This document shows positions 3,293-31,783 of a DNA stretch of 33,193 bases, in pieces. Every line of letters begins with the position of its first letter. The stretch's first letter is position 1. The notes beneath the pieces were generated by a model, which was given only the letters and a program-made list of their open reading frames with translations, had not been told where the DNA came from and did not search any database. Source of the DNA: Acidimicrobiia bacterium (GTDB lineage Bacteria; Actinomycetota; Acidimicrobiia; Spongiisociales; Spongiisociaceae); contig JBFGLM010000048.1 in NCBI GenBank assembly GCA_041576165.1, positions 1-33,193 on the forward strand, given 5' to 3'. A program made the position numbers and the translations under genes.

Positions 3293-3386
3293 GCCTCCAT
3301 TGTCTCCCACCTAGGTTGCGGCGGTGACGGGCGAAAGGCCCTCGGAATACAAGTCGGATCCCCCCGGGCCGGTGGAGCGGATGTCC

Positions 3387-5060
3387 TCAACGAACCAGCG
3401 GCTTGTACTTGATGCGGTGTGGTTCGACGGCCTCGTCTCCGAACTCGGCGCGCATGAAGTCCTCGTACTCGGAGTAGTTCCCTTCGAACCACCGCACCTG
3501 GCTTTCCCCCTCAAACGCCAGGATGTGGGTGCAGATGCGGTCGAGAAACCACCGATCGTGCGAGATCACGACTGCGCAGCCGGGGAACGCCACGAGGGCC
3601 TCCTCCAACGCCCGTAGGGTGTCGACGTCGAGGTCGTTGGAGGGCTCATCCAGCAGAATGACGTTCCCGCCGCGCCGCAGCATCTTCCCGAGGTGGACCC
3701 GGTTGCGCTCCCCACCAGACAGATCGCCGACCCTCTTCTGCTGGTCGCCTCCCTTGAAGTTGAGTGACGCGACGTAAGCCCGTGCGTTGACCTCTCGGTT
3801 GCCGACCTTGATGAGATCGTCACCGCCCGAGATCTCGTCGAATACGGACTTGTCTGCAGTTAGGGCGTCCCGGGTCTGATCGACGTAGGCGAGGTCGACG
3901 GTGGGGCCGATCTCGAGTACGCCGGCGTCGGGCTTCTCCGAGCCAGTCAGCATCTTGAACAGGGTGGTTTTGCCTGCGCCGTTGGCGCCGATCACACCGA
4001 CGATGCCGGCCGGGGGCAGAATGAAGCTCAGGTCTTCGATCAGAAGCCGGTCGTCGTATCCCTTCCGCAGCTGTTCGGCCACGATCACCTTGTCGCCGAG
4101 CCGTTGGGTGAACGGGACCTCCAGCTCCAGCTCGGAATCGCGTCCCGTGGTCTGCTCGGCCTCGGCTACCAGCGCCTCGTAGCGGTTCAGCCTGGCCCGG
4201 CCCTTGGCCTGTCGCGCCTTGGGGGACATGTGGACCCACTCCAGTTCCTGGCGCAGCGTCCGTTGTCGGGAAGATGCTTCGCGTTCCTCCTGTTCCAGAC
4301 GAGCAGTCTTCTGTTCGAGCCAACCGGAATAGTTGCCTTCGAAGGGGTAGGCATGACCGTTATCGAGCTCCAGGATCCACCCGGCGACATTGTCGAGGAA
4401 ATAGCGGTCATGGGTGACGGCCATGACGGTGCCGGGGTACTGCTCGAGGTGACGTTCCAACCAGGCAACGGACTCGGCATCGAGGTGGTTGGTCGGTTCG
4501 TCGAGCAGCAGCAGATCGGGTTTCTGCAAAAGGAGTCGGGCCAGCGCCACCCGGCGTCTTTCTCCGCCGGAGAGATGCTCGACGCCCGAGTCGCTCGGCG
4601 GCAGCCGCAGGGCATCCATGGCGACCTCGATCTGGCGCTCCACGTCCCAGCCGTCGACGGCTTCGATCTGTTTCTCCAGACGCGCTTGTTCCTCGCCCAG
4701 CTTTTCGTAGTCTGCCTCGGGGTCCGACCAACCGGCGAGAACCTCGTTGTAGTGTTCGAGGAGATCGCGCACCGGGCCCACGCCGTCCATGACGTTGCCC
4801 ATCACGGTCTTGGCGCGATCCAGCTCTGGTTCCTGGGGGAGCATGCCCACCGAGTAGCCGTTCATCAACTTGGCGTCCCCCGTGTAGCCGTCGTCCAGCC
4901 CAGCCATGATCCTCAGGATTGACGACTTTCCAGCGCCGTTGTGGCCGATCACACCGATCTTGGCGCCGTAGAAGAATGACAGCGAGACGTCCTTGAGGAC
5001 CCGCTTGTTGGGTGGATGGACCCGGTTGACCCGGTGCATCGAGTAGATGAATTCAGGCAT
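3387..5060 (-). CDS. ettA: Energy-dependent translational throttle protein EttA (ABC-F ATPase)
   Basis: Two ABC domains (GHNGAGKS and GANGAGKT; LSGGE; LLLDEP). EttA-typical N-terminus FIYSMHRV...LSFFYGAKIGVIG, inter-domain linker LEWVHMSPKARQAKGRARL and C-terminus PHRIKYKPL. Start re-called at ATG 5060. Confidence 0.95.
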   Translation of the reverse strand: MPEFIYSMHRVNRVHPPNKRVLKDVSLSFFYGAKIGVIGHNGAGKSSILRIMAGLDDGYTGDAKLMNGYSVGMLPQEPELDRAKTVMGNVMDGVGPVRDLLEHYNEVLAGWSDPEADYEKLGEEQARLEKQIEAVDGWDVERQIEVAMDALRLPPSDSGVEHLSGGERRRVALARLLLQKPDLLLLDEPTNHLDAESVAWLERHLEQYPGTVMAVTHDRYFLDNVAGWILELDNGHAYPFEGNYSGWLEQKTARLEQEEREASSRQRTLRQELEWVHMSPKARQAKGRARLNRYEALVAEAEQTTGRDSELELEVPFTQRLGDKVIVAEQLRKGYDDRLLIEDLSFILPPAGIVGVIGANGAGKTTLFKMLTGSEKPDAGVLEIGPTVDLAYVDQTRDALTADKSVFDEISGGDDLIKVGNREVNARAYVASLNFKGGDQQKRVGDLSGGERNRVHLGKMLRRGGNVILLDEPSNDLDVDTLRALEEALVAFPGCAVVISHDRWFLDRICTHILAFEGESQVRWFEGNYSEYEDFMRAEFGDEAVEPHRIKYKPLVR

Positions 5061-7411: not shown

Positions 7412-8334
7412 CAGTCGACGAGGGTTCGGCCCGTGAGGCGGAGGAACACATCCTCGAGGGTGGATCGGCGGACGAGCATCGACTCGGGCTCCAGCCGGCG
7501 CTCGGTTATCTCCTGGGTGGTGGCGTCAGCGTCGTCGGTGTACAAGAGAACGCGGTCGGGCAGCACCTCGACCCGTTTGGCGATGCCGTCCAGCCGCTCG
7601 ACCACTATTTCCTGCTCGCCCACCGGAAATCGAATCTCGAGCACCTCACGGGGCGCATGTTCTTGGATCAGGTCACGGGGTGAGCCCTCTGCGACGATCT
7701 TGGCCTTGTCCATGATCACGAGCCGATCGCACAGCTGCTCGGCTTCGTCCATGTAGTGCGTGGTGATGATCAGTGTCACACCATCCTGCTTGAGCCGGTA
7801 GAGCCGGTCCCACAGCAGATGGCGGGCCTGCGGGTCGAGGCCGGTGGTCGGCTCGTCGAGGATCATCATGTCGGGACGGTTGATCAGCGCCCGGGCGATC
7901 GTCAGCCGGCGCTTCATGCCGCCTGAGAGCGCCTGGACCTGGCCTTTGCGTCGGTCGGCGAGCTGCGCGAACTCGAGCAGCTCGGTCACCCGCACCCGCA
8001 GCTCTGTCCGGGGCAGATCGAAGTAACGACCGTAGATGGTCAGGTTTTCTTCGAGACTCAGCTCGTTGTCGAGCGTGTCCTCCTGGGGGACCACTCCCAG
8101 CCGAGCGCGAATTTGTGCTCCGTCGTGGGCTGGGTCGAATCCCATCACCGTCAGCGAGCCGGAGGTACGCGGGGATACAGCTCCGATCATTCGCATGGTC
8201 GAACTCTTTCCGGCCCCGTTGGGACCGAGGAAGCCGAACGCCTCGCCTGGATATACCTCGAAGTCGATGTTGTCGACGGCTACAAACGTGCCGAACGTCT
8301 TGGTGAGACCCCTGGCGCTGACGAGCGACTGCAT
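7411..8334 (-). CDS. ABC exporter ATP-binding protein (NodI/DrrA-like)
   Basis: Walker A GPNGAGKS, LSGGM signature, ILDEPTTGLDP, TTHY and a C-terminal TLEDVFLRLTG. ATG 8334 lies 7 nt after TAGGGT; the ORF track start of 8343 is an alternative. Confidence 0.93.
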   Translation of the reverse strand: MQSLVSARGLTKTFGTFVAVDNIDFEVYPGEAFGFLGPNGAGKSSTMRMIGAVSPRTSGSLTVMGFDPAHDGAQIRARLGVVPQEDTLDNELSLEENLTIYGRYFDLPRTELRVRVTELLEFAQLADRRKGQVQALSGGMKRRLTIARALINRPDMMILDEPTTGLDPQARHLLWDRLYRLKQDGVTLIITTHYMDEAEQLCDRLVIMDKAKIVAEGSPRDLIQEHAPREVLEIRFPVGEQEIVVERLDGIAKRVEVLPDRVLLYTDDADATTQEITERRLEPESMLVRRSTLEDVFLRLTGRTLVD

Positions 8335-8396
8335 CGGCGCCACCCTACTGACCCTCCGGTGGGCTCATGTCCGAATTACGTTCGCGGGTGGAACGC

Positions 8397-9458
8397 TCAC
8401 GCTGCGGTCAAGATCGCATCGAACACCGAACCCGACACGGGCACGCGGGTCATGGTCGACACCGCAGTGTCGAAGATGGTCAGATTCCCAGTGGTGGTGG
8501 TTATGACGATGAACCGGCCGTCGGGGCTCCAGCGCAACGCATCCGCGGCGACCCGTGATTCAGCGACTACTTCATCCTGGGCCACGATCCGCACGAGCCG
8601 CACGCCGCCGTCCTGGACGCTGAGTGCAATGCGGTTGCCCTCGAGCGGCCAGTCGAGACGCAGCAGGTTCCCGCTCGACGGCAGGTCCAGACTGGCGTCA
8701 CCGGTTGGGTAACCGACAACCGGATCGCTTCCTTCGCCGCGGCTGATGACGATGCCTCCGGTCGCACCTGCTCTATGGCCGATTGCGGTTCCGTTGTATC
8801 GGCGCAGCCCGTCTCCAAACTGGTCCATGACCAGCACCTCGAGCTGGCCTTCCAGTTGGTCCTGGACGTGCACGGCGACGCCCCAATCGCCAAATGCCTC
8901 GACCACTGCGCGGTCCGGCACCGTGGCGATCGATCTGAAGATGTATCCCTGCTCGGTCAGATCGCCCGCCCAGAGCTGGTGCAGTCCTCCAAGATGTCGA
9001 GTGGCGGCAATGCGACTCGGGTTGCTGTCATGCCAGGCGAAACCCGTGACGTCGGGTACGGCCAGGCTGAGATCGCTGGGAGGTCCGATCCACAGGTTGG
9101 AGCGGTTGCCATTTCCGATCGGTTCCATCGATGCAATGTGGGTGGCGTTGACGTTGAGGCGGCCGGCCGGCACGGTCAGGTCGGTGGAAATCGGAGCGAG
9201 CCGGGCCGCCGGCCATTGGACGTACCGGCTCCCGGTCGGAGCCTCGACGATGGCGTGAACTGTTCCGGTCAAGCCGGGAATGCGATCCCGCAGGGAGACA
9301 GGCGCCTCGGTGGTGGTGGTCACGATCTGTTCTTCCGAGGTCTCGAAGTCGCTGCCGAAAGCGAACGCGCCGATGGCCACCACGGCTACAAGCAGCGCTA
9401 CCCAAGGACCCCGCGTCCGCTTCGGTTGCTGTGGCGGAGCGTCGTAGGTGACACTCAT
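8397..9458 (-). CDS. Membrane-anchored hypothetical protein, probable beta-propeller (WD40/TolB-like)
   Basis: N-terminal TM helix, Thr-rich linker, and repeated W-x-x-x-G-type strands (WHDSNPS, WPLEGNRIA, WSPDGRFI). Confidence 0.6.
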   Translation of the reverse strand: MSVTYDAPPQQPKRTRGPWVALLVAVVAIGAFAFGSDFETSEEQIVTTTTEAPVSLRDRIPGLTGTVHAIVEAPTGSRYVQWPAARLAPISTDLTVPAGRLNVNATHIASMEPIGNGNRSNLWIGPPSDLSLAVPDVTGFAWHDSNPSRIAATRHLGGLHQLWAGDLTEQGYIFRSIATVPDRAVVEAFGDWGVAVHVQDQLEGQLEVLVMDQFGDGLRRYNGTAIGHRAGATGGIVISRGEGSDPVVGYPTGDASLDLPSSGNLLRLDWPLEGNRIALSVQDGGVRLVRIVAQDEVVAESRVAADALRWSPDGRFIVITTTTGNLTIFDTAVSTMTRVPVSGSVFDAILTAA

Positions 9459-13895: not shown

Positions 13896-15428
13896 TCAGT
13901 GCAACGGGCCCGTGGCGGACTCTGCGGCTTCGATCACTGTCCCGGCTGTGATCATCTCTGTTGCCGTGGCCAGCTCCGGTGCCAGCTGGCGGTCACGTGT
14001 GAGGCTCGGGATTCGCTCACGAACAGCAGCCAGTACCGCAGCCGACGCCGGGCCCGGTCCGAGCGGTGTCCGCAGCTCGAGCGCCTGGCAGGCTGCCACC
14101 AGCTCGACGGCGAGGATGCGAGCGAGGTTGGCAGCTGCCAGCCGCAACTTGCGTGCCGCCGCCCAGCCCATCGATACATGGTCCTCTTGCATGGCAGAGG
14201 TCGGCATCGAGTCGACGCTGGCCGGCGCCGCCAGGCGGCGGTTCTCTGCCACCATCGATACCGCCGTGTAGTGGGCAATCATCAGCCCTGACGAAACACC
14301 GGGATCGTGGGTGAGGAACGGCGGGAGCCCGTGGGAACGGGCCGGGTCCAGCATTCTATCGGTGCGTCGCTCAGAAATCGCGCCCAACTCTGCGACTGCG
14401 ATTGCGAGGAAATCGCAGGCGAACGCCACCGGCGCCCCATGGAAATTTCCGCACGACTCGATTGTTCCAGTCGGAGTCACGACCGGATTGTCGATCGCGG
14501 CCGCCAGTTCGTGGTCGGCTACCACCCGGGCGTGGACGATCGTGTCACGGGCTGCGCCGTGCACCTGGGGGGTGCAACGGAGTGAGTACGCATCCTGCAC
14601 TCGGGGATCGCCATCTCGGTGCGAGGCCACAATCGCGGATCCGGCCATGACGGCCGTGAGGTTGGCGGCGCTGTCCGCCTGGCCGGGATGCGGCCGCATT
14701 CGCACCAGATCCTCCCGGAATGCCTGGTCGGTGCCGAGCAACCCTTCGACGGTCATGGCGGCAACGACGTCGGCGGTTCGGACCAGCGTGATCAGGTCGC
14801 TCAGCGACAGCACCAGCATGCCGAGGATGCCGTCGGTGCCGTTGATGAGCGCAAGCCCTTCCTTCTCGAGCAGTTCGAGAGGCTCGATGCCTGCGTCTCG
14901 TAGCGCCTCGGCGGCCGGCTGCGCCCGGTCGTCGACCATCACCGAACCCTCGCCCATCAAAGCAAGGCCCACGTGCGCGAGCGGGGCGAGGTCACCGGAT
15001 GCACCGAGGCTGCCGTACTCGGGCACCATGGGTGTGATCCCCGCGTTCAGCAGATCCAGGATGCGCTCGGCTACATCCGGCCTTGCTCCCGAGAATCCCA
15101 TCGCGAGGGATCGAGCCCGCAACGCCATCATCGCCCGCACCACCTCCGCTTCGACCGGAGGACCCATCCCGGCAGCGTGGGAACGGATCAGCGAGACTTG
15201 CAGCTCGCGCCGGCGGTCCTGGGGGATGTAGGTGGTGGCCAGCGCACCGAAACCAGTCGAAACGCCGTAGGCCGGGCGTTGGGTCGCGGCGAGCTCCTCG
15301 ACGATGGCCCGCGATCTGCGCATGGCGCCACGAGCTTCCGGGCCGAGCGAGACCTTCGCTCCCCGCCGCGCCACCGCGATGACGTCTTCCCGCGTGATCC
15401 CGGTTGCTTGCAGCGTGATGTCTGTCAT
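13896..15428 (-). CDS. hutH: Histidine ammonia-lyase
   Basis: MIO-forming GASGDLAPL, YGVSTGFG, LIRSHAAG, KEGLALING, QDAYSLRC, QEDHVSMG. Confidence 0.97.
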   Translation of the reverse strand: MTDITLQATGITREDVIAVARRGAKVSLGPEARGAMRRSRAIVEELAATQRPAYGVSTGFGALATTYIPQDRRRELQVSLIRSHAAGMGPPVEAEVVRAMMALRARSLAMGFSGARPDVAERILDLLNAGITPMVPEYGSLGASGDLAPLAHVGLALMGEGSVMVDDRAQPAAEALRDAGIEPLELLEKEGLALINGTDGILGMLVLSLSDLITLVRTADVVAAMTVEGLLGTDQAFREDLVRMRPHPGQADSAANLTAVMAGSAIVASHRDGDPRVQDAYSLRCTPQVHGAARDTIVHARVVADHELAAAIDNPVVTPTGTIESCGNFHGAPVAFACDFLAIAVAELGAISERRTDRMLDPARSHGLPPFLTHDPGVSSGLMIAHYTAVSMVAENRRLAAPASVDSMPTSAMQEDHVSMGWAAARKLRLAAANLARILAVELVAACQALELRTPLGPGPASAAVLAAVRERIPSLTRDRQLAPELATATEMITAGTVIEAAESATGPLH

Positions 15429-16009
15429 TCGGTTCTTTCGGCCGGTTCGGTCGCAGCAATGACCGGTTCGATTCGCCGAAGGTACTCGTCATGCTGGTAC
15501 GTCATGAAGTTTTCCCAGGTCGCCATTGTTGTCGGATCGTGCATGCGGTCGACGATCAGCTTGCCGGCGAGGTGATCGAGTTCGTGCTGCACGGTGCCGG
15601 CGCTCAGACCGCGATACACCTGGGTGAAGGGTTCTCCGTGCCGGTCCCTGGCCGACACCCGAACGTGCATGAACCGGTGGAGGTCGCCCCGGATCGGGAC
15701 GCTCAGGCAGCCCTCGTTGTTGAGGAACGTCACACCATCGATCGCTTCGATCTCGGGGTTGACGAGCACGGTCAAGGGGATGGGGGGCTTATACGGGTAG
15801 CGGCGGTTGCGGACGACTTCGAGGATGCAGATGCGCAGATTGACGCCGACCTGGTTGGCGGCGATGCCGGCACCGTCGGCATCGCGCATGGTGTCGATCA
15901 TGTCGTCGATGAGTTGCTGCACGGCCGGCGAGGCGAGATCGTCTTCGGCAATATCTGCGCCGACCGTCCGCAGCACCGGGTCACCGATCTGAGAAATCGT
16001 CCGGATCAT
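15425..16009 (-). CDS. def: Peptide deformylase homologue embedded in the hut operon
   Basis: All three PDF motifs are present: GAGIAANQ, EGCLS and QHELDH. ATGA overlaps with both hutI and hutH. Confidence 0.92.
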   Translation of the reverse strand: MIRTISQIGDPVLRTVGADIAEDDLASPAVQQLIDDMIDTMRDADGAGIAANQVGVNLRICILEVVRNRRYPYKPPIPLTVLVNPEIEAIDGVTFLNNEGCLSVPIRGDLHRFMHVRVSARDRHGEPFTQVYRGLSAGTVQHELDHLAGKLIVDRMHDPTTMATWENFMTYQHDEYLRRIEPVIAATEPAERTE

Positions 16010-17223
16010 TCGTCACCCCGCTCGTACACTCGCCGGCCACCCAACCAAACCTCGCGGCAGAGCGGACGGCCCAGCCAGTAGGAGAGGGCAGCGGGGTCGT
16101 CCGTGTCCCACACCGCCAGGTCGGCTCGTTTCCCGACGTCGATGATGCCGGTATCGGTCAAGCCCAGGGCGGCGGCCGCGTGGCGGGTGGCGCCGGCGAG
16201 TGCCTCGGTCGGAGTGAGCCGGAAGCGGGCCGCGGCCAGCCACATCGCCGTTGGAAGGGACCCCACCGGTGACGTCCCGGGGTTCAGATCAGTCGAAACG
16301 GCGATCGGCACGCCGGAACGGCGCATCTCCTCGATCGGGGGGAGATGAGGTTCGTTGAGGAATGTCGAAGCCCCCGGGATGACAACCGCCACCGTACCGG
16401 CTGCAGCCAATGCTTCTACTCCCGCCGCAGAAGTGTGTTCCAGATGGTCAGCCGACAGAGCCCGGTACTCTGCAGCAAGGGCCGCGCCGCCCTGGTCGGA
16501 CAGCTGGTCGGCGTGGAGCCTCACCGGCACAGCCGCGGCTTTGGCCGCCTCGAACACACGCCGGATCTGGTCCCGGTTGAACGCAATACGCTCCAGGAAC
16601 CCGTCGACCGAGTCGGCCAACTGCTCCTCGACCGCTCGCGGGATGATCTCGCGGCACACGATGTCGATATACCGGTCGGGATCGCCGGCATGTTCCGGTG
16701 GGATGGCATGCGCCGCCAGGAGGGAGGTAACCACGCGTACCGGGAGCGCGTCGGCCAGGCGGCGGGCCACCCGCAGCATCTCCAGCTCATGATCGGTCGT
16801 CAGTCCGTAGCCCGACTTGATCTCCACCGTCCCCACCCCGCTCGCCAGCAGGTCGCGCACCCGCAAAGCGGCCGAGTCGAACAATTCACGGGCTGATGCC
16901 TCCCGGGTCGCCCGCACGGTCGAGACGATGCCTCCACCGGCCCGGGCGATCTCTTCGTAGCTGGCGCCTTGCAAGCGCCGTTCGAATTCGCGCACCCGGT
17001 TTCCGCCGAACACGAGGTGCGTGTGACAGTCGATCAGCGCCGGGGTGATCAGCGCACCGGCGCGATCCACCACGTCGGTGGCGTTGACGTTTTCGGGAGG
17101 TCCGATGTGGACTATGGAGCCCTCCCGAATTCCGACGGCAGCTCCCTCCACCAGCCCATACGGGCTGGCACCTTCGCGCATGGTGGCTACCCGGGCGCCG
17201 GTGATGGCAAGGTCGACGTTCAT
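16006..17223 (-). CDS. hutI: Imidazolonepropionase
   Basis: DCHTHLVFGG, EIARAGGGIVSTV, EIKSGYGL, HADQLS, SADHLE, STDLNPGTSP. Start re-called at ATG 17223 (ATGA overlap with hutF). Confidence 0.96.
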   Translation of the reverse strand: MNVDLAITGARVATMREGASPYGLVEGAAVGIREGSIVHIGPPENVNATDVVDRAGALITPALIDCHTHLVFGGNRVREFERRLQGASYEEIARAGGGIVSTVRATREASARELFDSAALRVRDLLASGVGTVEIKSGYGLTTDHELEMLRVARRLADALPVRVVTSLLAAHAIPPEHAGDPDRYIDIVCREIIPRAVEEQLADSVDGFLERIAFNRDQIRRVFEAAKAAAVPVRLHADQLSDQGGAALAAEYRALSADHLEHTSAAGVEALAAAGTVAVVIPGASTFLNEPHLPPIEEMRRSGVPIAVSTDLNPGTSPVGSLPTAMWLAAARFRLTPTEALAGATRHAAAALGLTDTGIIDVGKRADLAVWDTDDPAALSYWLGRPLCREVWLGGRRVYERGDE

Positions 17224-18554
17224 GACGTGACCGCTTGGATGGCTGCCCGCAACCCGGTCGGGCTGTGACCGGACACGTTGTGGCCGTCTCGCACGACGGC
17301 GCGCCCACCTACCACCACGTCGGTCACGCACCCGGCGCCGGCCCCGAAGAGGACCCCGGCGATTCCGTCGGCCGGATCGAATCCGACCACCCCTCCAAGA
17401 TCAACACTGATGAAGTCCGCCGGGCTTCCTGGCGCCAGCGGGTCATGGTCGCCCCAACCGAGGGCCTTCAGGCCGTTCATCGTTCCCATGGACATGAGCG
17501 CCTCGGGAGCATGGATGCCCCGCCGACCGAGCCGGAGCCGGTCGTTGAGCTCCACGGCCCGAGTCTCGTCGAAGGGGTCCACCACCGCGTGGCTGTCACA
17601 CCCGATGCTGAGTTGCACCCCGGCGGCGCGCAATTCGGCGGCCGGTCCGATCCCGTCACCGAGATCCCGTTCGGTGGTCGGGCAGAGACAGACGCCGGTG
17701 CCTGAGCCCGCGTACAGCTCAATATCACCCTCGAGCAGGTGCGTGGCATGCACGGCCACGGCGTGGGGACCCAATACCCCGGTGTCGGCCAGCAGGCGGG
17801 TCGGGCTGACCCCGTGTTGGGCGAGACAGGCATCGTTCTCAGCCGGCTGTTCGGAAACGTGCACGTGCACCGGCGCCTCCAGCTCGGCGGCGACTTTGGC
17901 AACCGTCGGCAGGTCGGTGGCGGCAACCGCACGAACGCTGTGGGCCGCCACGCCGATCCGGGTGAGGGGCCGGTCCGCAGCAGCATTGCGGAGGTCGCGC
18001 ACCCGGTTCGCCCACCGGCCGATGGAGCCGTCCGAAAACCGCAGCTGCTGCGGATTCGGAGGCGCCCCGTCAACCCCGGCAGTCAGGTAGCAAGTGTCCA
18101 AGAGCGTCAGTCGGATTCCTGCTGCCGCGGCCGCTTCGAGTACGGCCCGACCCATCGCATTGGAGGCCTCGTAAGGGTCACCGTTCGTCTGATGATGGAC
18201 GTAGTGGAACTCGCCGACGGTCGTGAATCCCTGCCGCAACATCTCTGCGTAGACCTCGGAAGCCAGCCGGCGGTAAGAGGCCGGCGCAAGCCGCCCGGCC
18301 ACTGCATACATGAGTGCGCGCCACGCCCAGAAGTCGCCCCGCCCGGAGTGGGTCTTGCCGCGCATCGCCCGGTGGAAGGCATGCGAGTGAGCGCTCACGA
18401 ATCCGGGCAACAAGATGCCGGGAAAGCGCGATGCACCGGTGCCACCGGCGCCCGCCTGCGCGTCGGTGATGATTCCATCGGCGACCTCCAGCCCAACATC
18501 CGCTACCAGGCTCGGCCCACCCAGCCACCCGAGCGGTGCGTGCCAGCGAGCCAT
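17220..18554 (-). CDS. hutF: Formimidoylglutamate deiminase
   Basis: HSHAFHRAMRG, DFWAWR..MY, EFHYVHH, AAHSVRAV, HVHVSEQ, VHATHL, CPTTERDLGDG. Confidence 0.94.
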   Translation of the reverse strand: MARWHAPLGWLGGPSLVADVGLEVADGIITDAQAGAGGTGASRFPGILLPGFVSAHSHAFHRAMRGKTHSGRGDFWAWRALMYAVAGRLAPASYRRLASEVYAEMLRQGFTTVGEFHYVHHQTNGDPYEASNAMGRAVLEAAAAAGIRLTLLDTCYLTAGVDGAPPNPQQLRFSDGSIGRWANRVRDLRNAAADRPLTRIGVAAHSVRAVAATDLPTVAKVAAELEAPVHVHVSEQPAENDACLAQHGVSPTRLLADTGVLGPHAVAVHATHLLEGDIELYAGSGTGVCLCPTTERDLGDGIGPAAELRAAGVQLSIGCDSHAVVDPFDETRAVELNDRLRLGRRGIHAPEALMSMGTMNGLKALGWGDHDPLAPGSPADFISVDLGGVVGFDPADGIAGVLFGAGAGCVTDVVVGGRAVVRDGHNVSGHSPTGLRAAIQAVTS

Positions 18555-18557
18555 CGC

Positions 18558-20213
18558 TCACCCAGTCGCCATCGGCAAGTCGACACCCCGTTCCCGGGCG
18601 ATGGCGTGCGCCCGGTCGTAGCCGGCGTCGGCATGGCGCATCACCCCGGTGCCCGGATCGGTCGTGAGCACCCGGTCGAGCCGTTCGTCGGCAAGTTCGG
18701 AACCGTCGGCCACGACGACCATCCCGGCATGAATCGAGCGCCCGATTCCCACCCCGCCGCCGTGGTGGACGCTCACCCAGGTGGCGCCGCTCGCCGCGTT
18801 GACGAGCGCATTGAGGATCGGCCAGTCGGCGATTGCGTCCGACCCATCGGCCATCGCCTCGGTTTCACGGTAGGGCGATGCGACTGATCCTGAGTCGAGA
18901 TGATCCCGCCCGATCACGATCGGGGCGGTGAGCTCTCCGGAGCGCACCATCTGGTTGAAGCGAAGGCCGAGCCGGCGCCGCTCTCCGTAGCCGAGCCAGC
19001 AGATCCGAGCCGGCAGCCCTTGAAACGCCACCCGCTCGGATGCCATCTGGATCCAGCGTGCCAGGCCGGGATCGTCGGGAAACTCCACGAGCACTGCCTG
19101 GTCCGTGGCTGCAATGTCGGCCGGATCTCCGCTCAGGGCCACCCAGCGAAATGGCCCTTTCCCTTCACAGAACAGCGGGCGGATGTACGCAGGTAAAAAG
19201 CCGGGATAGTCGAACGCGCGCTGGAACCCGCCGAGCTGGGCCTCGGTGCGCAAGCTGTTCCCGTAGTCGAAGACCTCGGCTCCCCGGTCAAGGAAGCCAA
19301 CCATCGCCGAGCAGTGAATTGCCATGCTTGCCCGAGCTCGGCGCACCAGTTCGCCTGGATCCTCGGTTGCCATGCGAGCCGCCGCTGTGGGCGTCAGATC
19401 GTTGGGAACGTACGACATCGGATCGTGAGCCGGGGTCTGGTCGGTGACGATGTCGGCTGGGAACTCCAACTCCAGGAGACGGGGCACGAGATCGGCTGCG
19501 TTGCCGATGACCCCGACAGAAAGCGGCCGACGCTCGTCCCGGGCCACGACGCAGCGGGCCACGGCGTCCTCGAGCGATCCGGCCAGCTCATCCAGATACT
19601 TTGTCTCGAGACGGCGGCGGGCTCGGTCAGCGTCCACCTCGATGCAAAGCGCAACACCTTCGTTCATGGTGATCGCCAGCGGTTGGGCGCCACCCATGCC
19701 ACCCAGGCCGGCGGTGACCGTGATGGTTCCCGCCAGGGAGCCACCAAAGCGCTTCTCCGCAATGGCACGAAAGGTCTCGTACGTGCCCTGCAGAATGCCC
19801 TGGGTGCCGATGTAGATCCATGAGCCCGCGGTCATCTGCCCGTACATGGTGAGTCCGGCCGCTTCGAGGCGGCGGAATTCATCCCAATCAGCCCAGTCGG
19901 GCACGAGGAGCGAGTTCGCCAACAGGACTCGCGGCGCCCATTGATGCGTACGGAACACGCCGACGGGCTTTCCCGATTGAACCAGCAACGTCTCGTCGTC
20001 GTCCAAGCGCTGCAAGGTCGTCACGATGGCGTCGAAGGCCTGCCAGGAACGCGCCGCCCGGCCGGTGCCCCCGTACACAACGAGGTCATCCGGTCGCTCA
20101 GCCACCTCGGGATCGAGGTTGTTCATCAGCATCCGCATGGCAGCTTCCTGCCCCCAGCCCTTGCACACGAGTTGGTTGCCTCGCGGCGCACGAACGATGC
20201 GCGGCGCGCTCAT
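18558..20213 (-). CDS. hutU: Urocanate hydratase
   Basis: [53 protein letters not shown]. Start re-called at ATG 20213, after an AGAGGAG SD. Confidence 0.97.
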
Positions 20214-20518: not shown

Positions 20519-21124
20519 TCAGTTGTGCCGGCTGGTGCGGGAGCGTCCGGCTGTGAGCAGTTCTTGATCGAACAGCTGGCGGAGTCGCCGCAACGCTCGC
20601 TGCCGGGTCGGGCCCAGGCTGCCGATTGGCCGGCACAGAACGGTTGCCGCCCGGTCGTAGTCGACCTGGCCGTTGAGCACCAGCGTGTCGAGGATCAGCT
20701 GGTCATCCGGCCGGAGCCGCTCCCAGGCTCGGTTCATGGCAGCTCTCGCTTCTCTGTCGACCAGGCACTCGTCGGGAGCAGACTCGTGGATTGATGCTAC
20801 GTCGAACGTCAGGGGCGCTGTGCGGCGTTGTTTGCGAATCACCGCCAGAGCCTCGCGGCGGGCCGTCGTCACCAGCCAGGAACGGACCGCACCTGGATCC
20901 CGGATTTCCTCGATGTGTTCGTACAGTCGTAGCCAGACGGCCTGGCCGACGTCCGCCACCTCGGAATCGGAAAGGCGCATGCGACGGGCGACCGAGAATA
21001 CAAGTCGCTCGTGCGAACGGTACATCTCAGACCAGGCCGAGGCTGAACCGCGTCGGCATCGATCGACCAGCTCGAACAGCAGGTCCTTGTGGTGGGGTGC
21101 GTGCTGATTGGTGGCTGCCGCCAT
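20519..21124 (-). CDS. ECF-family RNA polymerase sigma factor
   Basis: Region 2 (DVGQAVWLRL...SWLVTTARREAL) and region 4 (YDRAATVLCRPIGSLGPTRQRALRRLR). ATG 21124 follows a TGAGGA SD. Confidence 0.88.
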   Translation of the reverse strand: MAAATNQHAPHHKDLLFELVDRCRRGSASAWSEMYRSHERLVFSVARRMRLSDSEVADVGQAVWLRLYEHIEEIRDPGAVRSWLVTTARREALAVIRKQRRTAPLTFDVASIHESAPDECLVDREARAAMNRAWERLRPDDQLILDTLVLNGQVDYDRAATVLCRPIGSLGPTRQRALRRLRQLFDQELLTAGRSRTSRHN

Positions 21125-21151
21125 CGCAGTCCTCAGTGACGAGACGACGCC

Positions 21152-21183
21152 ACCATGCCAGAGCGCTCTCAAAAAACGCTCAA
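21152..21183 (-). promoter_or_regulatory. Putative SARP-binding direct repeat and -10 element for the ECF sigma gene
   Basis: Minus strand reads TTGAGCG-N4-TTGAGAG-N8-CATGGT (21183-21177, 21172-21166, 21157-21152): 11-bp periodicity and 8 nt to the -10. Confidence 0.6.
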
Positions 21184-21187
21184 AGCG

Positions 21188-23944
21188 CTACAAGCTGAGG
21201 CTGCGGGCTATTGCGAACGCGTCGACTCCATCTTGGATGTCGTGGCCCAGCTCCCGGTTCAGGCGCTCTAGGTGGAATACCCGGTCTAGATCATTCGCGG
21301 CCAACCCGAGCTCGGTGTTGATTGCATGGTGCGCCGCCAGGGCTCGGCGTGCGCCGGCGGGATTGGATTCGTCTAGGTCGAGCGCGGCGAAGACGAGCAG
21401 GAGCTCGGCGACCAGCGCTCGATGCCCCACTTCGAGTGCCGCGCGCAGACCGCGCCGCGCAACCCGGCGGCTGTGCGACAGGCGGCCACGGCGCTCTTCA
21501 ATTGAGGCGAGGCGGTAAAGACTCAGAATCTCGATGCTTCGGTCGCTTCCTCGCTCGGCGAGATCGACCGCCTCATCGGCTAGCTCGGCTGCTTCATCGG
21601 GTCGGCCCGCCAAATGAGCATGAGCCGCCAGCATCGCGAGAGCGTGCGCAGCCGATGACGCATCGGACGCATCCCGAAAAGCGTCCGCAGCGTCCGCCAG
21701 CAGCCGGCCGGTCGCAGAGTCAGACGTCCCGTCGAGAAGGCTCGACTGGGCGAGGAGGAGATTGGCCCGGGCGACCGCCGGCAGGTCACCGACGCTGGCG
21801 GCGATGGCGCGCGCGGCTTCGAATTCGGCTCGAGCGTCCTCACCTGCGAACTGGTGGCCGTGTCCGAGCTCGATCAGCGCCCGGGCCTGCGGCCCCTCGA
21901 GGTCATGCCGCTCTGCCATGGCATGGGCGTGGGACGCGGCGTCGATTGCCTCTGCGTATTCGCCGCAGCGCTGTGCAACACGCGCATGGAGGAGGTGCAG
22001 CTCGACCAGGGCTTCGGATCCGTCAACGGGGGCGGACACGGCTCGCCGGAGCCAGACGAGAGCTTCCCCCAACCAACCGGGGAGGTTCATCCAGACCGGG
22101 ACAACCAGCTGGAGAATCCGCATCATGTCATCCCACCGGCCCAGCTGCATCGCCCGCGACATCGCGGCTCGACATGCCGGCTGCTCCGTTTCTGGTGCGT
22201 GGCCGGCTTGGTCGTTGCCGACTGCCCAGGCAATGATGCGTTCGTCAAAAATCGACCGGTGTGGCTCGGCATCGAGGAGCCCGCTTGCGGCCAGGCGAAT
22301 CGAATCGACGATGCGGTACTGAGCCGGCCCGGCCGGCGCCGGAATGATGTGGATCAGCCCGGCGTCATCGAGCCGTTGGATCGACGCGACCCCAGAGGGC
22401 CCGAGCAGGGCCCGAGCCACCCCGATCCCGAACATCCCCGGGATGCCGGACAGCAGGATCAAAGCGTCACGCGCGGGCCCGGTCAGGTCACCAGTCGGGC
22501 TGGGAGGGTCGCCAAGCGACCGGCCGGCCAGCGTCGCCAGATCAGTGGTCCGCAGCCGGGCGGCGGCCAGCTCGATCTCGAGTGGCACGCCGCCGGTCGC
22601 GGCCACCGCGTCGGCCAGGAGCTGTGGGTCGGCACGGAGGTCGTATCCCGGCCGCACAGCCCCGGCCCGCTGGATGAACAGGCTGACCGCCGCCAGGCTC
22701 GCCATCGTTTCGGGATCGGAGCCGCTGCGCGGAACGGGTAGGGGTCGGACTTCCGACACAGGCACGCCGGCCAATGGCGTCCGCGCAGTCGCCAGCACTG
22801 TGACCGGTTGCGCCCACAGCCAGTCCGCCGTCGCGGGGTCGATGTTGCGGGGTGGCTCAACGCCATCGAGTACCAGCAGCGAGGACATTGCCTCGAACCT
22901 TCGCTCGAGCGAGGCGCGTATATGGCCATCAACCGGTGTTCCCATCGCCGCAGCAATTGTCTGGAGCGCCAAACCCGGTTCGGTCACGCTCTCCAGATCC
23001 ACCCACCAGACCCCGCCGGCAAACTCATCGATGAGTTCAGCGGCGACCGTTCGCGCAATCGCTGTCTTCCCGACACCTCCGGGTCCGGTCAGCGCGACAT
23101 GCTCCTGGGCGCGCAACCTCGAAAGCGCTGATCGCAGTTCGGCGTCGCGCCCTATCAGCGAGTGTTGGGCCCGATCCAGATTCGTCCGGAGGGTTCCGAC
23201 CGGTCGGCCTAACGTCGGGTCCTGATTCAAGATCGCGATCTCGAGCTCTTGCAAGGCCGGGCAGGGGTCGATCCCACGGGCCTCTCGCAACCGGATCCTC
23301 AGCTCATGAAACGCGGCGAGCGCTTCCGACTGTCGACCGGCCCGGTACAGCGTGACCATCAGGAGCGCAGCCAGTGACTCGCGGTCCGGATGTTGCTCGA
23401 ACAGCGCCCTCAGCTCGGGCAGCGCTGCGTCCGGATCGAGCTCTGCCCGGGCCCGCGCTCGCGTCTCCTCGGTATGGACGTGGAGTTCTTCGAGGCGCTC
23501 GATCTCCTGGCGGACCGCATCGAGGTGTTCCACATCCACATACGCCGGACCGCGCCAGACGTCCAGCGCCGCCGTCAATTGCTCAGCGGCGCCCTCTGCG
23601 TCAGCCAGCCGGAGACGCTCGCCGCCCTGGCGGCTCAGCCGCTCGAACTCCGAGACGTCGACGTCCACGGTTTCGCGGTTGATCCGATAGCCGCCGCCCT
23701 CACCGATGATCGATGAGTGTCCCAGGATCTTGCGCAGGTTGGAGATGTGGGACTGCAGCGTGTGCTTGGTCGATGGTTTCGCGTCCTCCCGCCAGACCTC
23801 ATCAACGAGGCGATCCGCCGAGACGGTGAGTCCGCCCCGCACCAGCATCACCGACAAGACACCTTTGGCCACCACGCCGCCTACCGATGCGCGCTCTCCG
23901 CCCCGCACGACATCGATGGCGCCGAGCACCCGAACGGCTACCAC
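21188..23944 (-). CDS. AfsR/SARP-family regulator (OmpR-type wHTH + BTAD + STAND NTPase + TPR-like helices)
   Basis: VRVLGAI, LQSHISNLRK and GGYRI; BTAD segment WRGPAY...HPDRE...LYRAGRQSEAL; Walker A GPGGVGKT, Walker B LLVLD, GVPLEIELAAAR; Ala-rich helical repeats; AAGAGGAGG SD. Confidence 0.92.
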   Translation of the reverse strand: MVAVRVLGAIDVVRGGERASVGGVVAKGVLSVMLVRGGLTVSADRLVDEVWREDAKPSTKHTLQSHISNLRKILGHSSIIGEGGGYRINRETVDVDVSEFERLSRQGGERLRLADAEGAAEQLTAALDVWRGPAYVDVEHLDAVRQEIERLEELHVHTEETRARARAELDPDAALPELRALFEQHPDRESLAALLMVTLYRAGRQSEALAAFHELRIRLREARGIDPCPALQELEIAILNQDPTLGRPVGTLRTNLDRAQHSLIGRDAELRSALSRLRAQEHVALTGPGGVGKTAIARTVAAELIDEFAGGVWWVDLESVTEPGLALQTIAAAMGTPVDGHIRASLERRFEAMSSLLVLDGVEPPRNIDPATADWLWAQPVTVLATARTPLAGVPVSEVRPLPVPRSGSDPETMASLAAVSLFIQRAGAVRPGYDLRADPQLLADAVAATGGVPLEIELAAARLRTTDLATLAGRSLGDPPSPTGDLTGPARDALILLSGIPGMFGIGVARALLGPSGVASIQRLDDAGLIHIIPAPAGPAQYRIVDSIRLAASGLLDAEPHRSIFDERIIAWAVGNDQAGHAPETEQPACRAAMSRAMQLGRWDDMMRILQLVVPVWMNLPGWLGEALVWLRRAVSAPVDGSEALVELHLLHARVAQRCGEYAEAIDAASHAHAMAERHDLEGPQARALIELGHGHQFAGEDARAEFEAARAIAASVGDLPAVARANLLLAQSSLLDGTSDSATGRLLADAADAFRDASDASSAAHALAMLAAHAHLAGRPDEAAELADEAVDLAERGSDRSIEILSLYRLASIEERRGRLSHSRRVARRGLRAALEVGHRALVAELLLVFAALDLDESNPAGARRALAAHHAINTELGLAANDLDRVFHLERLNRELGHDIQDGVDAFAIARSLSL

Positions 23945-24803: not shown

Positions 24804-25268
24804 GTGGAACCGGCAACGGCCAAGGTCAATCCAAATCGTGTGCTCCTCCTCATCGGAGCCGGCATAGCAGCACTTATTGTGGCTGTTCTGGCACTCAGCG
24901 CGGTTCGACGGGACCATCATCCGGAGCCTGGTACACCGGATGCCACCGTTGCGACCTACCTCGAGGCCATATTCGAACGGGACCATCAAGCAGCAGTCGC
25001 GCATTGGACGGAAGAGATCGGTGCCGATTGTTCTCGGGTTGACCTGACTCGGGCTTGGATCCCCCAAAACGTCAGAGCCGTTCTGGTCGCAACCCGAATC
25101 GATGGGAACACCGCCCAAGTCGACGTCGAGATGACGGATGCGTCCGGTGGGTTGCTGTTCGAGCACGAGTTCCAGGAGACCTTCTGGCTGACCCGTACCG
25201 GCGAGGGCTGGTTGATTTCCGAGATTCCCTGGCCCCTCTACGCATGCTCCGAAAGGATCGACCCATGA
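24804..25268 (+). CDS. Membrane-anchored hypothetical protein
   Basis: N-terminal TM helix, then PDATVATYLEAI...GWLISEIPWP (NTF2-like appearance); ATGA-coupled to the next gene. Confidence 0.7.
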   Translation: MEPATAKVNPNRVLLLIGAGIAALIVAVLALSAVRRDHHPEPGTPDATVATYLEAIFERDHQAAVAHWTEEIGADCSRVDLTRAWIPQNVRAVLVATRIDGNTAQVDVEMTDASGGLLFEHEFQETFWLTRTGEGWLISEIPWPLYACSERIDP

Positions 25269-26980
25269 TCGCCGCTCTCGTGCCGCTACTTGTGATCGGA
25301 GGGCTCATTGCGCTCGTCATCCGCGTCGTCGGCCGTCGCACGGCACAGACGGGAGAAGCAACCAGTGTCACCGTGCGCCGGTTCTTCCACTACGCGCTCA
25401 TGTACGGCGTGTTGGTCGTGGTAGCCATTGGCGTCAGCGGGCTGCTGGCTGAGATCATCCCCGCCCGAGGGATCGAAGTGCGCCGTGATCCCGTGGTGCT
25501 GGCCCGCTCGCTCGCGTTCGTCATTGTGGGCTCTCCCACCCTCGCCGGCCTCGGGATGTGGACCCAGCGTTTGCTCGATCGGGAGCCCCGGGAACGCGCT
25601 TCGTTCGGCTGGGCCTTCTACTTGACGGCTTCGCTGCTGAGCGCCCTCGTCGTGGCCGGCTGGGCGGCATTCGAGGCTCTCGGGTGGGTATTTGGGTTCG
25701 AAGATTTCGATCGGGAGTCATGGGCCCGGGCGGTCGTGTGGACTGTGGTCTGGGCTGGCCATTGGTGGCTTTCGATACGGGCCGGTCATCCCCCCCGCCT
25801 GCGCTTGGAACGTCTCGCCGGATCGGCCGCCGGCTTGATCGGCGTCGGAACCGCGCTGGGAGTGGCGCTGACCGCAGTTCTGGCATCGCTGTATGACGCC
25901 ACGGTTGAGGCGCCGGTGATCGTGCCCCTTGCGGACGGACTTGGTCGAGGCGGGGCGGGCGTGCTGGTCGGGGGCCTGATCTGGTGGTGGTACTGGCATC
26001 GCGGCGCGGTGCAGTTCAGCCGCGATACGCTGTGGCACGCCTACGTCCTGCTCATCGGGGTCTTCGGGGGGCTCGCCACAACCGTCGTGTCCGGCACTTT
26101 GGCGCTGTACACGGTGCTCGAGTGGTTCATCGGCGATCCGTCTGCCGCGACCGCGGCCGCTCAGTTTGACTCCGTTCCGGCCCAAGCGGCTGGTGTCATC
26201 GTCGGCGCCGGGCTCTGGTTCTACCACCGGGCCGTCCTGCGGGTGGCCGGCGCAACCGGACGCACGGACGTCGACCGGATCTATGACTACTTGATCGCTG
26301 GGATCGGGCTGCTGGCTGCGCTGGGAGGTGTCACGACATTGCTCGTTGCCGTGATCGACACGGTGCTGCCCGCGCCGGCTGTCGAGTTGGGAGCCTCGGC
26401 ACGCAACACACTGCTGGCCGCTATCACGCTGTTGGTGGTGGGCGGTCCGATCTGGTGGACCTTCTGGTCTCGTATCCAGGGTCTGATCCGGAAAGAATCA
26501 CGTGGCGAACAGACCTCCCCGATCCGACGGGTGTACCTGTTCGTTTTGTTCGGAATCGGCGGAGTGGCGGCGCTGATCAGCCTTCTGGTCGTCATGTTCG
26601 TTGCTATCGAGGACCTGATCGAAGGCAGGTTCGGCGCCGAGACAGTGAGGGACCTGCGTATTGGCTTGTCGATTGTGCTCACGGTGGGAGCGACGGCCGG
26701 GTACCACTGGAGCGTGTTCGGCCGCGATCGGGAGGTCGAGCCGGAGGAGCCCCCCGGGGTGAGGTCAGTCGTGCTGGTCGACCGCAACGGCGCAGCCCTG
26801 GCCGCCGCCATCTCTGACCAGTTCGGGGCGCGAGTCAGGCAGTGGCATCGCTTGGACGACCACGCCCCCGTCATCGACCCCGACGCCGTACTGCGAGCTC
26901 TTGCCGAGGAACGGTATCCCCATGTGCTGGTGCTGTCAGGGCCGGGAGGAGTCGAGATAGTGCCGTTCGAAGAGGACTGA
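25265..26980 (+). CDS. Multi-pass membrane protein, DUF5671-like repeats
   Basis: Start re-called at ATG 25265. Repeated helical-hairpin units beginning R-x-Y-x-Y/F and ending W-x-x-H/Y-W (RRFFHY, HAYVLL, RIYDYL, RVYLFV; WAGHW, WWWYW, WWTFW, GYHW), then a short soluble tail. Confidence 0.7.
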   Translation: MIAALVPLLVIGGLIALVIRVVGRRTAQTGEATSVTVRRFFHYALMYGVLVVVAIGVSGLLAEIIPARGIEVRRDPVVLARSLAFVIVGSPTLAGLGMWTQRLLDREPRERASFGWAFYLTASLLSALVVAGWAAFEALGWVFGFEDFDRESWARAVVWTVVWAGHWWLSIRAGHPPRLRLERLAGSAAGLIGVGTALGVALTAVLASLYDATVEAPVIVPLADGLGRGGAGVLVGGLIWWWYWHRGAVQFSRDTLWHAYVLLIGVFGGLATTVVSGTLALYTVLEWFIGDPSAATAAAQFDSVPAQAAGVIVGAGLWFYHRAVLRVAGATGRTDVDRIYDYLIAGIGLLAALGGVTTLLVAVIDTVLPAPAVELGASARNTLLAAITLLVVGGPIWWTFWSRIQGLIRKESRGEQTSPIRRVYLFVLFGIGGVAALISLLVVMFVAIEDLIEGRFGAETVRDLRIGLSIVLTVGATAGYHWSVFGRDREVEPEEPPGVRSVVLVDRNGAALAAAISDQFGARVRQWHRLDDHAPVIDPDAVLRALAEERYPHVLVLSGPGGVEIVPFEED

Positions 26981-27006: not shown

Positions 27007-27885
27007 TTAGCCGTACGCGGCGGGATCGGATTCGAACGCTTCCTGGCAGCCTGCGGCGCAGAAGTAATGGCTGGTGCCGTCGTATTCCGTGACGAAGCGG
27101 GCAACACGAGGATCGACGTCCATGCCGCACACCGGATCTGTTGCCATCTCCGGTGCCGCGACATCGACTGGAGAGCCGACTCCACCCGCCCGGAACCTCA
27201 CCAGTTCGGCAAGAACCGAGACGGCGATCTCGCGGTGTTCGGTGTGACCGAGGTCCACGCCGGCCGGCGCATGAAGCCGGGCGAGCGCCTCGTCCGGCAC
27301 ACCTCGAGCCCGCAGCCACTCTTTCACTGTGGAAGCCCGTTTCTCGGAGGCCACCAGGCCCACGTACGCGGCGTCGGTGGCGAGCGCGGTTTCCAATGCG
27401 GGCTCGTCGAAATGGCCCTGGCTTGCAACCACGACGTAGTCGCGCGCGGTTACGCCGACCATCTCAGGGCCGTCGTACGCCACGGCAGACCAGTCCAACG
27501 CAGTGACCATCTGCGCCAGCGCGGCCGTCAGCGGTGAGTCCCCGACGATGTGCACTCGGGGGTTGGGCAGCATCGGTTCCACCAGCACCTCCATCGCCCC
27601 TTCACTGGAGCATGCCATGGGCACCACGATCACACCAGGCCGGTCGTCGGTGGCGCCCAACACCAGCAATCGGGCTCGACCATCGGCGAGCGCAGCCAGC
27701 GCCTGTCGCACGAGCGTCGGCTGGGCGCAGGCACCCCCGACCCAGCCCTCCACGGTTCCGTCTGGATGGATGATCGCCTTGGCTCCGGTCTTCCCGGAGG
27801 ACGGACCCCGTACCCAGGTCACACTGGCAAGCACGAACGCCCGCCCCTCCGCCATCAACCGGGCGACGCGGGCCAGAACGCTCAC
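27007..27885 (-). CDS. XdhC/CoxF/CoxI-family Mo-cofactor chaperone fused to a C-terminal YHS domain
   Basis: FVLASV...GWVGGAC, YVGLVASEKR, LHAPAGVDLG...EIAVSVLAEL, then DPVCGM...YFCAAGC..AF..DP..Y. Start is GTG 27885 or 27903. Confidence 0.88.
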   Translation of the reverse strand: MSVLARVARLMAEGRAFVLASVTWVRGPSSGKTGAKAIIHPDGTVEGWVGGACAQPTLVRQALAALADGRARLLVLGATDDRPGVIVVPMACSSEGAMEVLVEPMLPNPRVHIVGDSPLTAALAQMVTALDWSAVAYDGPEMVGVTARDYVVVASQGHFDEPALETALATDAAYVGLVASEKRASTVKEWLRARGVPDEALARLHAPAGVDLGHTEHREIAVSVLAELVRFRAGGVGSPVDVAAPEMATDPVCGMDVDPRVARFVTEYDGTSHYFCAAGCQEAFESDPAAYG

Positions 27886-27925
27886 GGCGGTTCCCCCCAC
27901 CACGAACGAGGGTGGGAGGCCCGCT

Positions 27926-30285
<2,360 letters not shown>

Positions 30286-30289
<4 letters not shown>

Positions 30290-30756
30290 GTGTTGCCTCC
30301 CCGCATCGTTGCCCCGGCCGCCTGGATCGCTTTGACGATGTTCATGTATCCCGTGCAGCGGCAGATGTTCCCGCTTATGGCCCAGCGCACCTCCTCGTCG
30401 CTGGGGACGGGATTGTCCTCCAGCAATGCGGTCCCAACCATCATCATGCCCGGCGTGCAGAAGCCGCACTGGAGGCCGTGGTTGTCCTTGAACGCGGCCT
30501 GGATCGGGTGCAACTCTCCGTTCTTCAACCCCTCCACGGTGCGGACTTCACGGCCGTTCGCCTGCACTGCAAACACCGTGCAGGACTTCACCGGCCGGCC
30601 GTCGAGCAGCACGGTGCACGCGCCACACGACGTTGTGTCGCATCCGATATGGGTACCGGTCAGCCCGAGCTCGGAGCGGATGAAGTCGACCAGGAGCATG
30701 CGCGGTTCTACGTCGCTCGACGCAGATGCGCCGTTGATGGTCACGGTGACTTCCAT
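30286..30756 (-). CDS. coxS: CO dehydrogenase small (2Fe-2S) subunit
   Basis: [12 protein letters not shown]...[20 protein letters not shown]. Confidence 0.95.
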
Positions 30757-31631: not shown

Positions 31632-31783
31632 CCCGCATACCTCCTCGCTGGATCTATCGCCGAACCTAGCCAACGCGCCCTGCCCCGCGTCGGCTGAGAT
31701 GGGTAGTGGCTGACATTGCCAGCTGAGCCGCGCCGGGAGCACTAGCCGGAGGTGCCGCCGTCGGGCCGGTTAGTGGTGAGTGG

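Follow-up and report, generated by a model that had tools for sequence, protein, structure and literature searches.

In Pseudomonas-type pathways of histidine utilization (hut), HutF yields N-formyl-L-glutamate, and HutG (EC 3.5.1.68) hydrolyses it to glutamate and formate (PMC5343134). Proteins of the peptide deformylase (PDF) family are routinely seen as nascent-peptide deformylases, are annotated automatically as "peptide deformylase" and are pursued as antibiotic targets. The DNA described here, a stretch of 33,193 nucleotides from an Acidimicrobiia bacterium (contig JBFGLM010000048.1; "the window" means this whole stretch), carries a PDF gene, def, within an operon for histidine catabolism. 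Comparative sequence analysis gives a good probability that this gene (positions 15425-16009) encodes a non-orthologous N-formylglutamate deformylase recruited to histidine catabolism. The role is predicted because of the position of the gene in the operon, its co-occurrence with hutF, its exclusion of HutG and the changes in its substrate pocket. A known fold and a known reaction stand here in a new pairing.

The closest system in function is HutG itself (PF05013, TIGR02017, COG3741). The predicted reaction of the def product (P0001, 194 residues) and its place in the pathway, the step after HutF, are the same, and the two enzymes have a complementary distribution in hutF-positive genomes. 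The families however are unrelated, and P0001 matches no FGase model in Pfam or NCBIfam scans; it would therefore be a non-orthologous replacement and not a member of the HutG family. A second system is the formiminoglutamase HutG2 of the arginase family (COG0010, TIGR01227), which also ends the hut pathway at glutamate. It belongs to another family and to a four-step pathway, in which it acts on N-formiminoglutamate without HutF. The third is the M20 candidate (COG0624) of Streptomyces hut clusters, proposed for the same step in hutF-positive Actinobacteria that lack hutG. It has a different fold from P0001 and is absent from the window operon. For the Streptomyces avermitilis protein, named "alternative N-formylglutamate deformylase", Table 3 of the study concerned reports that no deformylase activity was detected (PMC3223725). 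N-formylglutamate deformylation in such lineages is a recognised gap, marked as unsolved once the M20 candidate had shown no activity. Another paper gives only two known types of HutG, and the word "deformylase" occurs in it 0 times (PMC5343134). An earlier note on this DNA had put forward the role proposed here as a candidate new one, and a full-text literature search, with most subscription journals and the supplements outside its reach, found no paper that proposes it or that links a PDF homologue to N-formylglutamate or the hut pathway.

The window is contig C48 of a metagenome-assembled genome (MAG) of 5.1 Mb in 161 contigs, which is 96.5% complete and 7.5% contaminated and has Acidimicrobiia MAGs as its nearest relatives. 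Open reading frames (ORFs) and family scans show five genes arranged head to tail on the minus strand:

18558-20213, minus strand: hutU, urocanate hydratase (TIGR01228, 914 bits; Urocanase N, Rossmann and C domains)
17220-18554, minus strand: hutF, formimidoylglutamate deiminase (NF006681, 577 bits, cut-off 362; TIGR02022, 438 bits, cut-off 413)
16006-17223, minus strand: hutI, imidazolonepropionase, with its ATG at 17223 (TIGR01224, 425 bits)
15425-16009, minus strand: def, the hut-linked PDF paralogue P0001, 194 residues (PF01327, 142.2 bits), with an ATGA overlap on either side
13896-15428, minus strand: hutH, histidine ammonia-lyase (TIGR01225, 654 bits; NF006871, 686 bits)

Translation of hutU probably begins with the ATG at 20213; the ORF is open back to 20333. 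A gap of 3 nt separates the hutU stop from the hutF start. The junction sequences show ATGA stop/start overlaps at the other three junctions, hutF/hutI, hutI/def and def/hutH. Thus the gene order hutU-hutF-hutI-def-hutH and the two overlaps of def, both reported in the earlier note, are correct, and the hutF/hutI overlap adds a third. The same note had found no hutG of either family in the window; Pfam scans of 24 ORFs, including the largest ones, bear this out, with no FGase, arginase-family or M20 gene found. Both def junctions are bridged by a 1592-nt contig from a public run (X1), which may be the source sample, and the def/hutH junction is also bridged by a 468-nt contig of a run from another study (X5).

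The linkage of this PDF to hut genes was examined in a scan of one genome per species, which gave 80 loci over which the Hut proteins of the window were run by tblastn. In a maximum-likelihood tree the window protein and 29 of the loci form a 30-row clade with a Shimodaira-Hasegawa-like approximate likelihood ratio (SH-aLRT) support of 99; in the alignment of 82 rows the other 52 lie outside it. Flanks of up to 6 kb contain a hut gene at 24 of the 29 clade loci and at 0 of the 51 non-clade PDF loci. By these comparative counts the linkage of def to hut genes is far beyond chance. The hut-linked clade rows comprise all 20 from Actinomycetota (Acidimicrobiia and two Thermoleophilia), 5 of 9 from Pseudomonadota and 0 of 1 from Haliangiales. 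The gene order varies among them (hutU-def-hutF-hutI, hutF-hutI-def, hutF-hutH-def-hutI, hutH-def-hutI, hutI-def, hutU-def), and therefore the linkage has been kept through rearrangements. At 2 of the 80 fetched loci fmt adjoins def, neither of them in the clade. All carriers found are uncultured MAGs. Of the 6388 relatives with E <= 1e-30, the nearest 120 all bear the source name "peptide deformylase".

There are also 21 long gene calls that match P0001, of which 15 join it to Hut proteins (12 HutU+PDF, 2 PDF+HutF and 1 PDF+HutF+HutI). The fused calls among P0128-P0145 are 370-1021 amino acids long and confirm the adjacency on further contigs. They were not counted as Rosetta-stone proof, since in several of them the alignment with HutU is interrupted by gaps of a kind that frameshift errors would leave. 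At one locus (L018) hutU is split by a frameshift.

The class Acidimicrobiia was surveyed in an even sample of 400 further genomes, 401 with the window's own; four flagged as unpublished (G254, G212, G275, G389) have neither the clade nor hutF and count in denominators only. Scores against P0001 are bimodal. Forty-eight of the 400 genomes score 175 bits or more; below them the best score is 118, and the housekeeping copies reach no more than 88. Each of these 48 carriers has two or more PDF-family matches. A hutF gene (NF006681) is present in 67 of the 401 genomes, over the cut-off in 66 including the window's own, and split in two in G038. It is present in 47 of the 48 carriers, and the clade occurs in only 1 of the 334 genomes without hutF. 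The two genes lie on the same contig no more than 3.1 kb apart in 44 of the 48 carriers and are directly adjacent, with a gap of less than 100 bp, in 32; G294, G375 and G215 have them on separate contigs. None of the 401 class genomes has a HutG (TIGR02017) match over the cut-off, the best score being 46 bits, and therefore an anti-correlation is not measurable inside the class.

HutG does occur in the gammaproteobacterial order of G401 (121 genomes), which contains three of the clade-bearing MAGs. Carriers were called there from a score of 168 bits or more in an alignment extending to residue ~190, and were then checked for signature residues. The order has 24 carriers, and all 24 have hutF. 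HutG is over the cut-off in 33 genomes, all hutF-positive, and fragments of it are found in 3 more. The 68 hutF-positive genomes divide into 23 with the clade only, 1 with both enzymes, 33 with HutG only (32 over the cut-off, 1 fragmentary) and 11 with neither. Thus HutG is found in 33 of the 44 hutF-positive non-carriers versus 1 of the 24 carriers (Fisher's exact p = 1.3e-8 for clade versus HutG, a value that ignores phylogeny and so overstates independence), and of the 57 genomes with at least one of the two enzymes a single one has both. In 14 of the 24 carriers no more than 3 kb separates def from hutF; the other 10 have hutF without HutG, with the exception of G459. Five further non-actinobacterial genomes were reached through the loci. 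HutG is over the cut-off in none of the five, and four have a second PDF.

These counts bear on an alternative in which P0001 is an ordinary PDF paralogue that acts on formyl-methionine (fMet) peptides, either as a passenger of the hut operon or as extra PDF capacity during histidine growth. Extra copies are common, with two or three PDF-family matches in 4 of 5 gammaproteobacterial genomes. A passenger, however, would not have kept a link to hutF in 44 of 48 class genomes and across several rearranged gene orders in two phyla. It would also not be expected in 24 carriers that are all hutF-positive and of which only one has HutG. Carriers moreover retain a separate PDF copy, which in the window's own genome lies beside fmt. 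The alternative is considered improbable; the protein itself, discussed below, bears on it from both sides.

The window's genome has exactly two PDF-family genes. The other one, on contig C8, lies in the context priA-def-fmt-rsmB (fmt: TIGR00460, 209 bits), is 40% identical to P0001 and is the housekeeping copy. P0001 is the second copy, placed in a catabolic operon and not beside fmt, so the def-fmt housekeeping role belongs to the other gene.

A bona fide HutG was not found anywhere in the 96.5% complete assembly. The sole FGase-family gene, on contig C60, scores 27-28 bits against a TIGR02017 cut-off of 278.75. It was rejected as HutG, being far under that cut-off and adjoining a QEGLA/DUF1704 gene and not hut genes. 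At that locus (L003, 239-2205, minus strand) the FGase-family protein (PF05013, 77 bits) overlaps by ~100 nt with the QEGLA-motif/DUF1704 ORF (TIGR02421, 270 bits), and the role of the pair is not related to hut. The sole arginase-family gene, on contig C7, was rejected as an agmatinase, with TIGR01230 over its cut-off and TIGR01227 at 158 bits against 229. The sole M20 gene of the hydantoinase type, a "Zn-dependent hydrolase" on contig C30, was rejected as well; its neighbours are unrelated, it is not linked to hut genes, and with the M20 genes next to hutF in two relatives it shares only 31-36% identity.

By family scores, fold and motifs P0001 is a member of the PDF superfamily. It scores 142.2 bits with PF01327 (cut-off 22.8), 142.5 with NF001159 (125) and 108.8 with TIGR00079 (103.95). 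An AlphaFold2 model from a 40-row alignment (A1) has a predicted local distance difference test score (pLDDT) of 94.7 and a predicted template-modelling score (pTM) of 0.91. The top Foldseek hits of the model are the PDF structures 5kob, 1sv2 and 5hgw (E ~1e-20, root-mean-square deviation 0.9-1.1 Å, target-normalised TM 0.93-0.96, 37-42% identity). With these PDFs (EC 3.5.1.88; all three with a large CD loop, 1sv2 being LiPDF of Leptospira interrogans and 5kob and 5hgw coming from Burkholderia) P0001 shares the fold, the three motifs, the Cys-His-His site, the catalytic Gln and Glu and a CD-loop insertion of similar length. The motifs G46-Q53 (GAGIAANQ), E99-S103 (EGCLS) and H142-H146 (HELDH) align with E. 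coli G43-Q50, E88-S92 and H132-H136, and are intact as the earlier note had read them. The metal ligands C101, H142 and H146, together with Q53 and E143, are invariant in the 82 aligned rows and in alignment A1. Intact motifs, scores over the Pfam and NCBIfam cut-offs and the match to solved PDFs all fit an ordinary PDF, the alternative raised above. The invariant residues also bear on a further explanation, that P0001 is a non-catalytic or regulatory PDF-like protein, for example one that senses a ligand or acts as a partner to HutF or HutI. Such a fate is a general possibility for paralogues, and the clade has a specific C-terminal helix at residues 165-187 with an invariant Trp165. The conservation of every metal ligand, of Gln53 and of Glu143 argues for retained catalysis, and this explanation appears highly improbable.

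The substrate pocket sets the clade apart. The 30 clade rows were contrasted with the 52 non-clade rows, and the E. coli numbering is that of K-12 def. Residue 47 (E. coli I44) is Ala in 30/30 clade rows and mostly Val elsewhere. Residue 52 is Asn in 28/30, where non-clade rows mostly have Pro, and residue 98, directly before EGCLS, is Asn in 29/30, where they mostly have Trp. Position 138 (E. coli I128) is Gly, Cys or Ala in 30/30 clade rows, being G138 in P0001, and mostly Arg or Val in the others. Residue 139 (E. coli C129) is Thr in 30/30 versus 0/52, with Val in 46 of the 52. In the CD-loop insertion Y73 and K74 are each present in 30/30 versus 0/52; the sister PDFs have Asp or Glu followed by Ala. 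Trp165 is likewise found in 30/30 versus 0/52, and the clade has the longer C-terminal helix.

A second gammaproteobacterial tier (12 genomes) has R74 and Y98 and keeps A47, N52, Y73, the small residue 138 and T139. The residue at 74 is Lys or Arg across the tiers, and therefore its positive charge is conserved; directly before EGCLS an Asn or Tyr takes the place of the Trp of related PDFs. Ten lower-scoring PDFs checked from the order have P52, W98 and V139, and no Tyr73, basic residue 74 or small residue 138.

Ile130 of AtPDF is taken here to be the equivalent of E. coli I128, and C129 is presumed to lie in the S1' pocket. As described in PMC3101196, fMet fits the hydrophobic S1' pocket of PDF, and the motif-1 Ile (AtPDF Ile42, E. 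coli Ile44), Phe58 and Ile130 reshape that pocket upon ligand binding. The same paper describes the CD loop as contributing to closure of the active site and as enlarged and mobile in LiPDF. A docking study names Ile44, Leu125, Cys129, His132 and Arg97 as active-site contacts (PMC4964514). Nothing on the CD loop was found in the LiPDF paper PMC4264029. With A47, G138 and T139, P0001 does not have the hydrophobic S1' pocket of a functional PDF for fMet-peptides. The methionine-binding S1' residues are replaced clade-wide, which argues against an ordinary PDF.

A mechanism can be proposed on this basis. In the established part of the pathway HutH, HutU and HutI convert histidine to N-formimino-L-glutamate, which HutF deiminates to N-formyl-L-glutamate. 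The PDF paralogue would then hydrolyse the formyl amide of this product, giving glutamate and formate. Catalysis would follow standard PDF chemistry, with a metal-activated water, Cys101, His142 and His146 as ligands, Gln53, and Glu143 as general acid/base. The S1' pocket would be opened and made polar to take the glutamate side chain. Tyr73 and Lys/Arg74 may bind a carboxylate of the free amino acid and close the groove that otherwise holds the rest of a peptide. The predicted substrate of P0001 is thus a free N-formyl amino acid, where that of PDF is a nascent peptide. Translational coupling through the ATGA overlaps ties PDF synthesis to that of hutF, hutI and hutH.

More broadly, it is likely that a PDF-fold clade has left protein maturation to become the catabolic N-formyl-L-glutamate deformylase of hutF-type pathways in Acidimicrobiia, Thermoleophilia and several uncultured gammaproteobacterial lineages, where it would replace HutG and where the Tyr-Lys/Arg pair would switch the specificity. 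The earlier note had proposed the recruitment of this PDF as a non-orthologous formylglutamate deformylase. It had asked for a separate housekeeping def and for the absence of hutG elsewhere in the genome; the former is the C8 gene in priA-def-fmt-rsmB, which leaves the hut-linked def not the only one, and the FGase and arginase-family candidates for the latter both fail. It had also asked for conserved linkage in relatives, found in two phyla with differing gene orders; for co-occurrence with hutF, found in the class and the gammaproteobacterial order; for anti-correlation with hutG, found in that order; and for polar or basic substitutions in S1', found as small and polar residues in the pocket, with the conserved basic residue 74 in the CD loop. 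The computational tests that it listed as able to refute the recruitment were run and none did so; the predicted role is supported by these comparisons.

Some loci have neighbours of other kinds. At the locus of the closest relative (L012, PDF 67% identical), hutF-def adjoins an EgtB-like protein (DinB_2 + FGE-sulfatase) and an M20 peptidase (2321-3640 and 8060-9400), and none of hutH, hutU and hutI lies within 6 kb. This context may be linked to ergothioneine or hercynine metabolism. A PhyH-family Fe(II)/2-oxoglutarate dioxygenase adjoins the hut-type PDF at two gammaproteobacterial loci (L034, 5064-5909; L037, 3012-3872), and PhyH is joined to PDF in three long gene calls (P0127, P0131, P0132). 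In one genome (G408, contig C10, 307040-314064; loci L034, L113 and L114) two hut-type PDF copies, each 76% identical to P0001, lie ~6 kb apart and flank a Mutator-family transposase.

P0001 might also be a hut-pathway hydrolase with another substrate, either N-formimino-L-glutamate directly, as in a formiminoglutamase, or another formylated compound that arises when histidine or a related imidazole or ergothioneine compound is broken down. The formimidoyl group is isosteric with the formyl group, and both the EgtB-like and M20 neighbours in L012, with no hutH, hutU or hutI nearby, and the recurrence of PhyH beside the gene in some gammaproteobacterial loci are in keeping with it. The co-occurrence however is specific to hutF (47/48 and 24/24), whose product is N-formylglutamate, and that same compound is the substrate of the FGase-type HutG, the enzyme with which the gene is mutually exclusive. 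A direct formiminoglutamase would make hutF redundant. Another substrate is accordingly regarded as unlikely, and N-formylglutamate is preferred.

Several observations weigh against P0001 as an N-formylglutamate deformylase. Canonical PDFs are poor on free N-formyl amino acids. The clade occurs without hutF in one class genome, G094, and at 5 of the 29 clade loci the flanks contain unrelated genes and none of the hut pathway. In 4 of the 10 non-actinobacterial locus genomes (G403, G406, G409, G410; completeness not known) hutF is not over the cut-off. G459 carries both the clade and HutG, and its hutF is truncated. Frameshifts in long-read assemblies may have produced the long fused gene calls. 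Finally, both the clade and HutG are missing from 19 of the 67 hutF-positive genomes of the class and from 11 of the 68 of the gammaproteobacterial order. Among the 19, hutF is at a contig end in 6 and has an M20 gene beside it in 2. No consistent third deformylase emerged beside hutF at these loci (L092-L110); apart from the 2 M20 genes and one Amidohydro_2 (L100), the neighbours are unrelated (PD40, Dus, VanY, methyltransferase) or familyless. Such genomes imply either a further deformylase or a pathway that can end at N-formylglutamate, and this could apply to the window's genome as well.

Other features of the window concern the operon and its surroundings. The window HutI (16006-17223) is 49-55% identical to hutI of Pseudomonadota loci (L024, L029, L039; MAGs of Gammaproteobacteria and Poriferihabitaceae) and only 36-40% identical to hutI of most Acidimicrobiia and Thermoleophilia clade loci (compared loci L013-L032). 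Because identity separates two HutI types, part of the operon may have been exchanged. Directly upstream of hutU on the same strand there is a sigma-70 region-2 protein of 217 residues, like those of the extracytoplasmic function (ECF) group (20519-21172, minus strand), followed by a 918-residue regulator with SARP/BTAD, AAA_16/STAND NTPase and TPR domains (21188-23944, minus strand). No hut repressor of the HutC/GntR type turned up among the 24 window ORFs scanned. A 641-residue protein (25055-26980, plus strand) has three DUF5671 stretches and no further family match. A molybdenum hydroxylase cluster (27007-31742, minus strand) consists of an XdhC-like protein with a C-terminal YHS domain (298 residues), a molybdopterin-binding large subunit (847 residues) and a FAD-binding subunit (328 residues).

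If the proposed role is true, the clade would clearly illustrate both functional recruitment and non-orthologous gene displacement, and its "peptide deformylase" label in public records would be corrected. The residue signature Ala47, Asn52, Tyr73, Lys/Arg74, a small residue at 138 and Thr139 could serve metabolic-reconstruction tools, together with a rule that can be put to the test. The 19 class genomes and 11 gammaproteobacterial genomes with neither enzyme may have a further N-formylglutamate deformylase. For enzymologists the clade would offer a natural example of the re-tuning of PDF specificity. The five-step hut pathway would, in addition, gain its missing final enzyme in lineages where HutG was not found, as in the Acidimicrobiia sampled (0 of 401 genomes, 67 of them with hutF).

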